Shown: piece by piece, positions 10,312 to 42,478 of the stretch
Layout: the number at the start of each line of letters is the position of its first letter
How positions within the stretch are numbered: position 1 is the stretch's first letter
Sequence record: MK931438.1
DNA: 44,748 bases
Strand: one strand, 5' to 3'
From: Escherichia phage Schulenburg
Position numbers and translations under genes: made by a program
The notes under the pieces: generated by a model
What the model saw: the letters and a program-made list of their open reading frames with translations, nothing else
Databases searched by the model: none
Told to the model about the DNA's origin: nothing

Positions 10312-10926
10312 ATGGCGAAGACTAAATCAGAGATATTCACGCTAATCGGTTCCGAGCTACCGGACAACACGACCGGACTTATTACGCCTGCGAAGTTGCG
10401 CGGGGTATTAACCCAGATGGCTGACTCACCTATTTACGCCACTCCGGGTGTTAAAGAGGTTGAAGTTCTCCGCGCTGCGTTGACAGTAGCGCAAGCGCCT
10501 ACCGCAGTAGATACGGCGTTGCAGTTAACTTTCGGCTCTGCCCAGGGTAGTGCATCTGACCCGGTAATGATTAATGCTGCGGGTCTTGTTACGTTCAACA
10601 CCGCGGGTAACTACGCTGTTCGCATCAAGTTACAGGCCGGTCGTACAGGGGCCAGCGGTACATCTATCCTGTTATCGCGCATTCTTCTGAACGGTGCTCA
10701 GTACGGCTCTCCAGCTGCCACGAAACTGGTAAGCGCGGACACCACAATCCCGATTGAATCCCGCGTCGTTATTAACGCAACAGCAGGCCAGACGTTTGCC
10801 GTTCAGATTATGCGGGATAGCGCCGGGAGTAACTTCGGTGGCGTATACCCTCAAGCGGCTACCGTAACCGCATGGGGTGTAGCCCCCTCAGCGCTACTGG
10901 TTATTTCGAGACTGGAGGCCGCCTGA
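10312..10926 (+). CDS. hypothetical structural protein
   Basis: 204-aa ORF in neck region. Confidence 0.5.
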   Translation: MAKTKSEIFTLIGSELPDNTTGLITPAKLRGVLTQMADSPIYATPGVKEVEVLRAALTVAQAPTAVDTALQLTFGSAQGSASDPVMINAAGLVTFNTAGNYAVRIKLQAGRTGASGTSILLSRILLNGAQYGSPAATKLVSADTTIPIESRVVINATAGQTFAVQIMRDSAGSNFGGVYPQAATVTAWGVAPSALLVISRLEAA

Positions 10927-31753: not shown

Positions 31754-31782
31754 ACTATAATAGCTAACTATTCAGGTGTCAA
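31754..31782 (-). promoter_or_regulatory. type-A promoter with operator in spacer (TTGACA-17-TATAGT; AATAG-N4-CTATT)
   Basis: Perfect -35, 17-nt spacer containing inverted repeat gAATAGTTAGCTATTat; immediately after the DUF2800-like stop. Confidence 0.55.
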
Positions 31783-34290: not shown

Positions 34291-34319
34291 ACTATAATAG
34301 CGAACTATTCACTTGTCAA
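34291..34319 (-). promoter_or_regulatory. type-A promoter with operator in spacer (TTGACA-17-TATAGT; AATAG-N4-CTATT)
   Basis: Minus-strand promoter divergent from the HTH regulator gene; inverted repeat gAATAGTTCGCTATTat in spacer. Confidence 0.55.
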
Positions 34320-37202: not shown

Positions 37203-37310
37203 TTATAAGGCTTCATGCATACGGCGCATTGCGCGGTTCATCTTTACCGGTGCGGAGAAGTCTGCGCCGTGTTTCTGGCGGCGTAGCTGTGGACCTATTA
37301 ATTTCGCCAT
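37203..37310 (-). CDS. small ORF (35 aa, speculative)
   Basis: AAGGA SD then ATG just upstream of primase; could be a leader peptide or non-coding. Confidence 0.25.
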   Translation of the reverse strand: MAKLIGPQLRRQKHGADFSAPVKMNRAMRRMHEAL

Positions 37311-37350
37311 TGTATAATCCTTGTGCTTACTTTGATGATTTGTGCTTCGG

Positions 37351-37384
37351 CCCCGACGTCCTAGCGTTGGGGTTTCTTTTATTT
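37351..37384 (+). terminator. plus-strand intrinsic terminator-like hairpin in a minus-strand operon
   Basis: ccccgacg / cgttgggg stem (with one G-U pair) followed by TTTCTTTTATTT; preceded about 35 nt upstream by TGTATAAT. Confidence 0.4.
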
Positions 37385-40762: not shown

Positions 40763-41052
40763 GCCTCGCAACTGACATCCTGAAACGAAGCGGCCTTGCG
40801 CCGCTGTCGCCGAGAGCGAATACACGAATACACAAGCGCCGCCGTAACGCGCTGTACCATGAGATTCAGGCCAGACGCAAAGCGGTCCGCGCCTGCGGAT
40901 TCCAGAGCGGGAAGGCCGTTAATCTAGGCGAGTTTAAGACGAAGGAACGCGCAGCAATCGCTAATCGGATATTTAATTACTGGAAATCGCTGGGATATGA
41001 TGATATTCCGACGAAACCGCAGAGACGACAATACATCTGGAGACATAAATAA
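40759..41052 (+). CDS. hypothetical basic protein (97 aa)
   Basis: Arg/Lys-rich; ATG 40759 overlaps upstream stop. Confidence 0.45.
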   Translation: MSLATDILKRSGLAPLSPRANTRIHKRRRNALYHEIQARRKAVRACGFQSGKAVNLGEFKTKERAAIANRIFNYWKSLGYDDIPTKPQRRQYIWRHK

Positions 41053-41082
41053 ACCGTTATTAAGATAATTCCTAACCGTGCT

Positions 41083-41122
41083 ATCCTCCAGTTACTGCAT
41101 ACTTAATACGCACCTGGAGGAT
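41083..41122 (+). promoter_or_regulatory. SD-sequestering hairpin upstream of holin start
   Basis: 9-bp stem atcctccag / ctggaggat with about 22-nt loop; the 3' arm contains the GGAGGA SD for the TTG start at 41128. Confidence 0.4.
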
Positions 41123-41127
41123 TCATC

Positions 41128-41436
41128 TTGGATAAATTTACTGAAACAGTGACAGGCTGGCTTCTGGCTGCCGCACTAGCCGGTGGGGTAATCGGACTAA
41201 GGCAACATAAGTCCGCTATTTCCGGCCCTATCGACGGCTTCTGCTTTATTGCAACTGGATTCACTTGCGCCGTATTCGGTGCACCTCTCGCTGCCCAATG
41301 GTTTGGCATTACCGGTGAGCGTGAGATAGCTGGCCTTGGCTTCATTATCGCTATTCTCTGGATGCCTATTTATTCCCGTCTCTCCGGTATCGTCGCCGGA
41401 GAATACATCGCACGTCGAGGAGGTGGCAATGAATGA
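41128..41436 (+). CDS. holin (putative)
   Basis: 102 aa, predicted 2-3 TM helices, charged C-terminus; TTG start; immediately upstream of endolysin. Confidence 0.5.
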   Translation: MDKFTETVTGWLLAAALAGGVIGLRQHKSAISGPIDGFCFIATGFTCAVFGAPLAAQWFGITGEREIAGLGFIIAILWMPIYSRLSGIVAGEYIARRGGGNE

Positions 41437-41710
41437 GTTATTCTGGTTTGGCGGTATGCTCGCTATCGGAGGCACATCGCTGTTTAACGTATACCACCCC
41501 AGCGTTGACGACGGGCTATTCGGTCGGGTGCTCTATATCCTGACCGCTATCGTCTGCGCCGCCGGGTGTATCCACCTGCTACAGGGCAGCGTGTCACCAA
41601 CGTTGCCGGAAACACTAATCACCCTGGTAGCGCTGCGACAGATTCGTCAATCGTGGCTGCATTACCAGTCGAAAGGAGGACATAAGCGTGTCTCGAAACA
41701 TTTCAGATAA
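41429..41710 (+). CDS. holin-like / antiholin membrane protein (putative)
   Basis: 93 aa from ATG 41429 (AGGAGG SD), two predicted TM helices, basic C-terminus; overlaps both neighbours. Confidence 0.45.
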   Translation: MNELFWFGGMLAIGGTSLFNVYHPSVDDGLFGRVLYILTAIVCAAGCIHLLQGSVSPTLPETLITLVALRQIRQSWLHYQSKGGHKRVSKHFR

Positions 41711-42191
41711 TGGATTGCAGTTCAAGAAAGCGTGGGAGAAGTTTCGTGGAACTGCGTACAAAGCCACAAAGAACGAGAAATACTGGACTATAGGCTGGGG
41801 CCATACCGGACCAGATGTGTACGAAGGGCAGAAGATTACCGAGGGTCAGGGGTTGCTGTTACTTAACCGTGATATGCAGTGGGCGGTGAAAGCAGTAGAC
41901 GAGGTGGCGCATCCATCGCTTACCCAGGCCCAGTTTGATGCCGTTGTTGACCTGGTGTTTAACGCCGGAACTGGTGTTATCGCAGCGACTACCGGAACCG
42001 GTAAGGCGCTACGGCAGGGGGACATCGCAGCCTTACGGCACAAGATGAGCCAGTTCATTAACCAGCGCAACCCTAAGACCGGTAAACTTGAACCTGTTCT
42101 GGGCCTGCGCCGTCGTGTAGCGGGTCGCCTGGCGCTGTTCGACGGTAAACCGTGGCAGGAGGCGGAGGATATCGGGAGGGCTGTTAAGTGA
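41688..42191 (+). CDS. endolysin, GH24 phage lysozyme
   Basis: T4-lysozyme-like motifs WEKFRGTAYK and YWTIGWGHTG; GTG start with AAAGGAGGA SD. Confidence 0.85.
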   Translation: MSRNISDNGLQFKKAWEKFRGTAYKATKNEKYWTIGWGHTGPDVYEGQKITEGQGLLLLNRDMQWAVKAVDEVAHPSLTQAQFDAVVDLVFNAGTGVIAATTGTGKALRQGDIAALRHKMSQFINQRNPKTGKLEPVLGLRRRVAGRLALFDGKPWQEAEDIGRAVK

Positions 42192-42323
42192 TGGACGAAT
42201 ACGAAGGTGTTTAGTATTATGGTTAAGCCAAGTTTTTCGTATTTGCATACTAAGCCTTGGTAAACCTGAAGCAGCAGCCCAAGCGGTGGAGACTGCGTAG
42301 GGTTCAGAGGCTTATGACCGAAA

Positions 42324-42352
42324 CCCGGACCGCGAATCCGGGTTTTATTTTA
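42324..42352 (+). terminator. intrinsic terminator 1 after lysis cassette
   Basis: acccgga-ccgcgaa-tccgggt hairpin followed by TTTATTTT. Confidence 0.6.
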
Positions 42353-42356
42353 CCAA

Positions 42357-42385
42357 TTGACACCTGAGAATAATCCGACGATACT
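42357..42385 (+). promoter_or_regulatory. candidate promoter (TTGACA-17-GATACT)
   Basis: Perfect -35 with weak -10, located between the two terminators. Confidence 0.3.
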
Positions 42386-42424
42386 TAAATCACCTCCTGT
42401 TCCATCCCTCTGCTCTCCAGTTTT

Positions 42425-42457
42425 ATCCCGGCCCTGACCCAGCCGGGATTTTTTTTA
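42425..42457 (+). terminator. intrinsic terminator 2 after lysis cassette
   Basis: 8-bp stem atcccggc / gccgggat followed by 7-8 T. Confidence 0.65.
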
Positions 42458-42478
42458 TCTATTTTCTGTAATGACTAG

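Follow-up and report, generated by a model that had tools for sequence, protein, structure and literature searches.

A leader hairpin predicted to occlude the Shine-Dalgarno sequence of a phage holin gene, and its evolutionary link to terminators that overlap putative promoters

The type I toxin mRNAs tisB and hok are activated in a way that depends on their 5' ends: they are inert while the ribosome-binding region is sequestered, and they become active when RNA processing shortens them at the 5' end, with antisense RNA also involved. Lysis timing is a central fitness trait for phages, and little is known about how holin production is controlled outside of lambda, T4, and a few other models. 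In phage lambda, a stem-loop upstream of the holin gene S gates the ribosome's access to the Shine-Dalgarno (SD) sequence that serves Met1, and it affects when lysis occurs (bioRxiv 10.1101/2025.05.14.654169). Here, we describe a hairpin that precedes a holin gene of Escherichia phage Schulenburg (MK931438.1) and contains the SD of that gene. Coordinates refer to the window, which is the whole stretch of 44,748 nucleotides (nt) that we analyzed.

A sequence-only reading of this DNA had proposed that a 9-bp stem holds the SD of a TTG-initiated holin gene in a duplex, and that this could set the lysis clock by limiting translation. We found partial support for this interpretation: the structural claim stands, and the helix is real and selected. 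Our literature search found no description of the hairpin, and a covariance-model search against Rfam 15 gave no match over it (there were two chance-level matches elsewhere in the region, with E > 5).

The hairpin and the start of the holin gene

The window is from a Kagunavirus-like siphophage of E. coli. When compared to phage genomes, the region had about 120 matches (80-92% identity), nearly all of them to E. coli siphophages of the genus Kagunavirus (Guernseyvirinae), and the top match was to Snoke. The hairpin sits in a 75-nt gap 5' of a three-gene lysis cassette on the + strand. Its parts are:

41076-41080, + strand: 5' side of a weak outer helix; CC is predicted to pair with G41130-G41131, and GUG with C41124-U41126
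41083-41091, + strand: 5' arm of the hairpin (anti-SD), ATCCTCCAG
41092-41113, + strand: loop, 22 nt, A/U-rich, with in-register potential pairs 41093/41112 and 41095/41110
41114-41122, + strand: 3' arm of the hairpin, CTGGAGGAT
41116-41121, + strand: SD of holin 1, GGAGGA, within the 3' arm; 6-nt spacer to the TTG
41128-41130, + strand: start codon (TTG) of holin 1; the open reading frame has no earlier possible start; invariant in 80 relatives
41128-41436, + strand: holin 1 gene, 102 amino acids, TTG start; matches the holin family phrog_2359 (E = 7e-30)

The nine pairs of the proposed stem are all perfect. As proposed, GGAGGA lies inside the 3' arm and is predicted to be paired on + strand RNA that contains both arms. 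The TTG at 41128 did turn out to be the sole plausible start of the reading frame: it is the first start codon past the in-frame stop, and the next methionine is only at about residue 80. Also, the resulting N-terminus (MDK) aligns with those of ATG-initiated homologues from Dhillonvirus. We considered a dual start, as in lambda S, and rejected it: the N-terminus (MDKFTETV) has no second methionine, and the one alternative start nearby in frame, a GTG at codon 8, has no SD. The outer helix is predicted to cover the start codon in part, and its counterparts cover the AUG in Dhillonvirus and the UUG in Serratia phage Scapp.

The predicted folding energy of the hairpin alone is -14.2 kcal/mol, and 5 of the 9 stem pairs are G-C. 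A 55-nt segment folds at -15.6 kcal/mol (z = -2.4; 5 of 200 shuffled sequences fold equally well), and for a 108-nt context the z score is only -1.3. The window contains 25 inverted repeats of 9 bp within 40 nt, versus a rough chance expectation of about 7, and a 9-bp inverted repeat by itself, without regard to its placement, is not significant. To take placement into account, we kept the ribosome-binding region fixed and shuffled the 74 nt upstream. The SD core was hidden as fully in just 3 of 1000 shuffles (its probability of being unpaired is 0.0015, and the median for the shuffles is 0.38). Accessibility was computed over the SD core; averaging over -15 to -5 understates the occlusion. 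By this measure, holin 1 has the least accessible SD among 55 candidate starts on the coding strand. There are two near-ties, the candidate starts at 10926 (+) and 39348 (+), whose SD cores have unpaired probabilities of 0.002-0.003; the one at 10926 also uses CTGGAGG.

The duplex of GGAGGA with the 3' end of 16S rRNA has an energy of -9.3 kcal/mol. Whether the SD is free to form it is predicted to depend on the 5' arm. On RNAs that include the 5' arm, the probability that the SD is unpaired is 0.001-0.005, and the opening energy is 10.0-12.3 kcal/mol; for an RNA that starts at 41094, these values are 0.38 and 5.8 kcal/mol. With a Salis-type conversion (0.45 per kcal/mol), this gap would correspond to roughly a 7- to 18-fold difference.

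Conservation of the leader and a homologous terminator

To see if the hairpin is conserved, we collected relatives from 40 IMG/VR loci, about 38 metagenome contigs, and several GenBank genomes. This gave 80 sequences with 27 haplotypes. Across 42 distinct sequences, the nucleotide diversity over 41068-41157 is 0.009-0.05, as compared to 0.1-0.24 in the rest of holin 1 and in holin 2, and 0.2-0.36 in the endolysin. In the 80 sequences, 41082-41153 is nearly invariant, and from 41154 on, third codon positions vary freely. The diversity values and the per-site table together delimit this block:

41077-41153, + strand: constrained block with the hairpin, the SD, the start codon, and codons 1-8 including their third positions

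This block is the most conserved part of the lysis cassette, and it is under strong purifying selection. It is conserved with either of two upstream neighbors: a 112-residue open reading frame, as in the window, or an inserted gene for an HslV-like protease.

The few changes within the hairpin mostly preserve or extend it. The only variant in the 5' arm is A41090>G, which gives a G.U pair in relatives L040 and L042, and the only variant in the 3' arm is T41115>C. In the clade of L030 and L042, changes at 41096, 41109, 41111, and 41113 close the loop, giving a stem of 13-14 bp (-20 to -21 kcal/mol). In L027, a change from T to G at 41092 adds one G-C pair.

We also considered a pseudoknot between GUUACUG in the loop (41091-41097) and CAGUGAC (41147-41153). 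Three relatives (L027, L058, and L059) have 41096A together with 41148T, which is compensatory, but four haplotypes have 41148T alone, so we consider the pseudoknot to be unsupported.

Holin 1 has homologues in Dhillonvirus with about 50% identity, and there the leader is cgTGaTATAGTCCCAGTGAG-CTAAAA-CTTACTGGGACT-T7-ATG, that is, a 12-bp stem and a U-tract that adjoins the start codon, with no SD. By its sequence, this hairpin is a canonical intrinsic terminator. We based a covariance model on the Kagunavirus hairpins alone, and in 7 of 8 Dhillonvirus loci it matched the element at the homologous position (E = 0.001-0.05; these values are rough). To compare the two helices, we used the covariance-model alignment and an explicit table of pairs, and we left alignment A5 out of the pair counts, as it contains reverse-strand self-hits of the hairpin. 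In either plausible register, 6 of the 12 pairs differ on both sides yet stay paired. L151, from Dhillonvirus, also keeps the helix: an inserted C is paired with an A>G change. RNAalifold found no structure in a MAFFT alignment of the Kagunavirus and Dhillonvirus leaders because the sequence alignment sets the arms out of register.

The two genera also share CGTGnTAT immediately before the helix. Because the upstream genes of Kagunavirus and Dhillonvirus encode unrelated proteins, it is the holin that the element travels with. (We looked for a Q-like regulator just upstream and rejected it, given these unrelated proteins; the one in Kagunavirus has no Pfam match.) G.U pairs are found in L040, L042, and Dhillonvirus, and also in the non-homologous stems of KW1E and eiAU, which are described below. 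These pairs point to RNA of the + strand rather than to a symmetry of the DNA. Taken together, the comparisons indicate that the helix is an old and selected feature of the holin leader on + strand RNA.

These results bear on whether the hairpin might be a chance inverted repeat, or might be conserved solely because of recent recombination at a module junction. Such repeats are common in the window, and the boundary of a gene insertion or deletion lies immediately upstream, near 41052. Against this, few shuffles hid the SD as fully (3 of 1000), a 75-nt island between two diverged stretches has a more than tenfold lower diversity, and the helix is kept across genera with compensated changes. 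We strongly disfavor this explanation and see very little chance that it is correct.

The boundary itself reflects a presence/absence polymorphism directly 5' of the hairpin. About 40% of the relatives have the HslV-like protease gene (at 1850-2287 in L001), and the last codons of that gene (...TTA GGA TAA) correspond to non-coding sequence in the window (41060-41068). The window appears to have the deleted form, with a junction near 41052.

Since the Dhillonvirus element is a terminator, the hairpin in the window might instead act on transcription, as a weak terminator, a pause site, or a target for antitermination. Polymerases coming from upstream would then enter the lysis genes only in part, or only late, and the pairing of the SD would be incidental. 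Besides the homology, there are terminators at the same position in two other groups of phages (KW1E/KLB and eiAU), and 4 of the first 7 bases of the tail are T. However, the tail (TCATCTT) has an nT of 1.5, and the terminator discriminant, whose formula reportedly comes from d'Aubenton-Carafa in 1990, is -38 to -66 (-55 for the window), versus typically +14 to +28 for Dhillonvirus. The loop spans 22 nt, or 12-14 nt in the clade of L042, our terminator scan makes no call at the hairpin, and it is specifically the anti-SD/SD complementarity and the TTG start that are conserved. We consider a transcriptional role to be improbable. As a Rho-independent terminator proper, the window's hairpin can be rejected: its stem would be acceptable, but the tail, TCATCTTGG, has no U-tract, and the loop is longer than 3-8 nt. 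The Kagunavirus and Dhillonvirus elements are homologous in position and helix and share CGTGnTAT. In Dhillonvirus, KW1E/KLB, and eiAU, the loop is short (6-7 nt), a run of T6-T8 follows the stem (T6-T7 in Dhillonvirus), the gene starts with ATG, and there is no SD. In the window, the loop has 22 nt, the U-tract is missing, the 3' arm holds the SD, and the gene starts with TTG.

The -10-like element and the origin of the transcript

The 5' arm of the hairpin overlaps a promoter-like motif, and an imperfect palindrome lies just upstream:

41079-41087, + strand: TGcTATCCT, an extended -10-like element that overlaps the 5' arm; transcription from it is predicted to start near A41094
41060-41075, + strand: imperfect palindrome TTAAGATAATTCCTAA; TTAAGA, which forms its left half, weakly resembles a -35 hexamer and is separated from TATCCT by 16 nt

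As expected for an extended -10 element, TGcTATCCT has TG at -15/-14, and its hexamer has A at position 2 and T at position 6. It resembles galP1, which is an extended -10 promoter with a similarly poor hexamer. In the 80 relatives, the TG and the TATCCT are invariant, and the "n" position between them (41081) is about 50:50 C and G. The motif aligns with cgTGaTATAGT in Dhillonvirus, which overlaps the 5' arm there. The palindrome is polymorphic at 41063 and 41075, with no covariation and no other good copy in the window, and its function is doubtful. Neither the loop nor TGnTATCCT has a meaningful second copy in the window, and the same is true of the palindrome.

Similar arrangements are found in other lineages of this holin family. 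In KW1E_UTAR, KLB16, and KLB22, the sequence TTGACC-N17-TACTAT ends where the 8-bp stem of a terminator starts, followed by T7-T8 and the ATG. In Edwardsiella phage eiAU, TGtTACCAT adjoins the 9-bp stem of a terminator, followed by TTTTCTT and the ATG, and in Pseudomonas phage Amjad_SA, TGcTACCAT lies within a long hairpin. In the Serratia phages Scapp and Smarc4, a terminator is followed by TTTACC-N18-TAATCT, which adjoins the 5' arm of a hairpin; the spacer between these hexamers has a constant length and a variable sequence. The 3' arm of that hairpin, AGGGGCT, holds the SD, and a TTG start follows. Overall, a -10-like hexamer adjoins or lies in the 5' half of the hairpin in six lineages, and the TG extension is present in four of them. 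Transcription that began about 7 nt past such a hexamer would start within the 5' arm or just beyond it. The leader of Pectobacterium phage Wc4 is similar only in part, and we found no prophage relatives in bacterial genomes.

Scapp and Smarc4 share several features with the window: the holin starts with TTG, its SD (AGGGG) lies in the 3' arm, the loop has 19-20 nt, an outer helix touches the start codon, and a -10-like TAATCT adjoins the 5' arm. Unlike the window, they have a separate canonical terminator about 45 nt upstream and a stem of just 6-7 bp, and the sequence of the loop differs between the two phages. The TTG start combined with an occluded SD fits with selection for low translation of the holin.

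In Dhillonvirus, KW1E, and eiAU, the terminator touches the ATG, so the holin must be transcribed either through the terminator or from within it. A promoter that overlaps the 5' arm would be a neat solution. We also noticed that the holin's ATG comes directly after the U-tract, with no recognizable SD, in Dhillonvirus (L043, at 1102-1146; L044; and L138-L152) and in KW1E (L153, at 548-610). In these phages, the U-tract may be an S1-dependent landing site for ribosomes. In eiAU (KF772233, L155), an in-frame ATG at 468 gives MDLWQK, while the annotated start is at 522. Because the ATG at 468 matches the N-terminus of the family and lies right after the U-tract, the annotated start is probably 18 codons too short.

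The reading that we favor, with a probability of about 45%, is that the hairpin blocks the translation of holin 1 only on RNA that reads through from upstream. Our terminator scan found no + strand terminator-like site between 39006 and 42321 (the site at 42321, at the end of the lysis cassette, is the first one after 39006), so transcripts of the small genes upstream are expected to enter the lysis cassette, and such RNA would contain both arms. It would fold, burying the SD and part of the TTG, and holin 1 would not be translated from it. The 3' arm is the SD of the holin, and the 5' arm would double as part of the extended -10 element. In contrast, RNA that starts about 7 nt past this element, near 41094, would lack the anti-SD arm. 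Its A/U-rich leader of 34 nt would leave the SD largely free, and the modest rate of translation would be set by the weak promoter and the TTG start. The synthesis of the holin, and hence the timing of lysis, would be insulated from read-through transcription. In Dhillonvirus, KW1E/KLB, and eiAU, a hairpin at the same position would provide this insulation by terminating transcription, as a full intrinsic terminator. The form in Kagunavirus, and apparently that in Scapp-like Serratia phages, lacks the U-tract and would block translation instead.

More broadly, the phrog_2359 holin family might travel with a nested module, in which the -10 of a lysis promoter overlaps the 5' arm and the hairpin forms only on RNA from upstream. 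Evolution would have switched the output of this module between termination (Dhillonvirus, KW1E/KLB, eiAU) and SD occlusion (Kagunavirus, Scapp-like), and it would be a general insulator of the lysis clock in virulent siphophages. We hold this broader claim tentatively, at somewhat less than even odds.

The main alternative is the one that the sequence-only reading proposed: all holin mRNAs start 5' of 41083 and carry the hairpin, which throttles translation in cis. SD occlusion and the TTG start would keep translation uniformly low, and slow accumulation of the holin would set the time of lysis. The large A/U-rich loop may serve as a standby site for ribosomes. The molecular act, occlusion of the SD, is common to this explanation and the favored one; what distinguishes them is the set of RNAs on which it takes place. 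A throttle is in line with the occlusion that is predicted whenever an RNA has both arms, with the invariant TTG, and with the conservation of the loop and of codons 1-8, which resembles that of a tuned ribosome-binding region. In Scapp and Smarc4, where a terminator already stops read-through, a TTG still goes together with an SD in the 3' arm. There is also the precedent of lambda S, where an upstream stem-loop governs the access of ribosomes to the SD (bioRxiv 10.1101/2025.05.14.654169). A throttle does not explain why there is a -10-like element at the 5' half of the hairpin in six lineages, with the TG in four, or why the Dhillonvirus terminator touches the ATG and leaves no room for a promoter downstream. 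A candidate promoter at 41040-41069, which is listed by a consensus scan (GAGACA-N18-GATAAT), would yield full-length leaders, but its -35 is missing from genomes that have the HslV-like gene upstream. We think that the throttle has a realistic chance of being correct, although we lean against it.

Several observations weigh against the origin of the transcript being what matters. TATCCT agrees with the -10 consensus at just 4 of its 6 positions, and the -35-like hexamer, at a spacing of 16 nt, is weak (TTAAGA or TTAGGA) and polymorphic. The outer helix and the stem offer another explanation for the invariant CGTG and for part of the -10-like motif. Transcripts from the context-specific candidate at 41040-41069 would carry the full hairpin. 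Our literature search found no maps of transcript 5' ends and no transcriptomes for Kagunavirus or Dhillonvirus. The only Kagunavirus paper that it found with lists of promoters and terminators, on phage fBC-Eco01, predicts neither in this intergenic region (PMC9825357 supplementary Table S2).

Other points against this reading concern the helix and its distribution. In one contig (L084), T41115>C breaks a pair of the stem. There is no usable covariation within Kagunavirus, as 10 of 14 pairs never vary; because almost no site varies, covariation within the genus is uninformative. The energy for opening the whole region from -16 to +12 is 11.8 kcal/mol, which is unexceptional (the genome-wide mean is 10.9 kcal/mol), so the occlusion is specific to the SD and not unusually strong. 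Scapp and Smarc4 already have a good terminator about 45 nt upstream of the hairpin, so a filter on read-through would be partly redundant there. Finally, the arrangement is absent from three lineages of the holin family: in ep3 (L156) and PPpW-3 (L157), the holin starts 0-4 nt after a gene for a "late transcriptional activator," with no leader, and the holin of BcepC6B has a free SD (AAGGAG).

The lysis cassette, other elements, and known systems

The remaining features of the lysis cassette are:

41429-41710, + strand: holin 2, a second holin or antiholin-like gene, 93 amino acids; matches phrog_2508 (E = 3e-30)
41688-42191, + strand: endolysin, GTG start; matches PF00959, Phage_lysozyme (E = 8e-25)
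42321-42351, + strand: intrinsic terminator at the end of the cassette, AAACCCGGA-N7-TCCGGGTTT and then TATTTT

The name "holin" for 41128-41436 is based on the family match, the predicted transmembrane segments in relatives, and the order of the genes; its relatives are annotated as class I, with three transmembrane segments (in the annotation of Snoke). The ATG of holin 2 overlaps the end of holin 1 and has a strong SD of its own, GAGGAGG (duplex energy of -13.1 kcal/mol, accessibility of 0.38).

Just past the cassette, there is a short and conserved predicted transcription unit (42357-42459, + strand). It has a sigma-70-like promoter, TTGACA-N17-GATACT (42357-42385), and would yield an RNA of about 65 nt (42392-42459) that ends in an 8-bp G+C hairpin and U8 (42425-42459). 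The 5' part of this RNA is unstructured and C/U-rich, with two anti-SD-like boxes, CACCUCCUG and CUCUCCAG. Its diversity is 0.02-0.12 (in 37 relatives), and 42190-42350 is hypervariable. The sole match in Rfam is below threshold (RF02278, a toxic small RNA; 25 bits versus a gathering score of 50). The unit could encode a small RNA of the phage or be an attenuated leader. The fBC-Eco01 paper lists its promoter and its terminator but no RNA (PMC9825357). A link between this candidate small RNA and the lysis genes is not supported: it has no preferential match to their start regions.

This candidate is relevant to another explanation for the hairpin, which is that it is an operator for a trans-acting factor: an RNA-binding protein of the phage or the host, or a small RNA, would open or lock it. 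The 22-nt loop is nearly as conserved as the stems, which is more than pairing requires, and the conserved small RNA with anti-SD boxes lies just past the cassette. However, the loop motif does not recur in the window, and the loop differs between Scapp and Smarc4 and is not conserved in Dhillonvirus. In sense, the candidate small RNA matches the 5' arm, and the start regions of the lysis genes rank just 20th, 34th, and 38th of 55 as its potential targets. No Rfam family matches the hairpin. Also, its predicted melting is flat from 25 to 50 C, which argues against a thermosensor. We would be surprised if the hairpin were an operator. An RNA thermometer is rejected on the same grounds: the predicted probability that the SD is unpaired goes from 0.0005 at 25 C to just 0.004 at 50 C.

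Elsewhere in the window, a near-palindromic 20-mer, TGAATAGTAnCCTATTATnT, has 7 copies, as compared to 0.02 expected:

6182 and 15287, + strand: copies of TGAATAGTAnCCTATTATnT
31755, 34292, 34336, 38188, and 39113, - strand: copies of TGAATAGTAnCCTATTATnT

Among these copies are some that overlap strong sigma-70-like promoters, such as those at 31754-31782 and 34291-34319 on the - strand, and no copy is near the holin. The fBC-Eco01 paper names this motif "phage RNAP promoter" (PMC9825357). It looks more like an operator or a promoter motif. At 37290-37318 (+ strand), there is a promoter-like TGGACC-N17-TATAAT, and within about 30 nt there is a strong terminator-like hairpin (37349-37374, + strand) with 11 pairs and the tail TCTTTTATTT. 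Together (37290-37374), these could form a very short transcript or an attenuator that heads the rightward block of small genes.

Finally, the 19-mer GGAGGATTCATCTTGGATA is also found in metagenome contigs that are unrelated to the phage (L064, L085, L088, L097, and L080), where it follows CCTCCCAYSG. There, the two form a tight anti-SD/SD hairpin before a TTG and short open reading frames of 7-45 codons. This may be a conserved element of another group of organisms.

If the favored reading is correct, then the element is a portable way to tie a toxic gene to a single promoter, with the -10 placed within the structure that silences foreign transcripts, and the same helix can be retuned from a terminator to a translational block. 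If the throttle is correct, then this is a well-conserved but ordinary case of SD occlusion. Phages of both genera, Kagunavirus and Dhillonvirus, are widely isolated as therapeutic candidates against pathogenic E. coli, so it is of practical use to know what sets the latent period, and the hairpin could be reused as an insulator in engineered phages.

Compared to known systems, the hairpin is most like the stem-loop of lambda S ("sdi" in the older literature), which also lies directly 5' of the holin's start and controls access to the SD. The lambda structure is small (nt -21 to -7) and divides initiation between a pair of in-frame start codons, of which Met1 yields the antiholin and Met3 the holin. 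The element in the window is not of this type: it has a single TTG and a much larger, 40-nt hairpin with the entire GGAGGA in its stem, and the two are not related in sequence. Also, unlike in lambda, the helix in the window descends from, or shares ancestry with, a terminator, and it overlaps a -10-like element. As with tisB and hok, the mRNA encodes a small membrane-damaging protein, and a 5' segment would sequester the ribosome-binding region. Unlike in those systems, the short form would come from an internal promoter, and we found no processing site or antisense RNA. The hairpin also resembles generic SD-occluding hairpins and RNA thermometers (ROSE, fourU), in that an anti-SD pairs with the SD within one hairpin. 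As in SD-sequestering leader hairpins, the SD lies in a stable helix, and selection maintains that helix. Overall, the element is a predicted SD-occluding leader hairpin with an unexpected evolutionary link to a terminator that overlaps a putative promoter.

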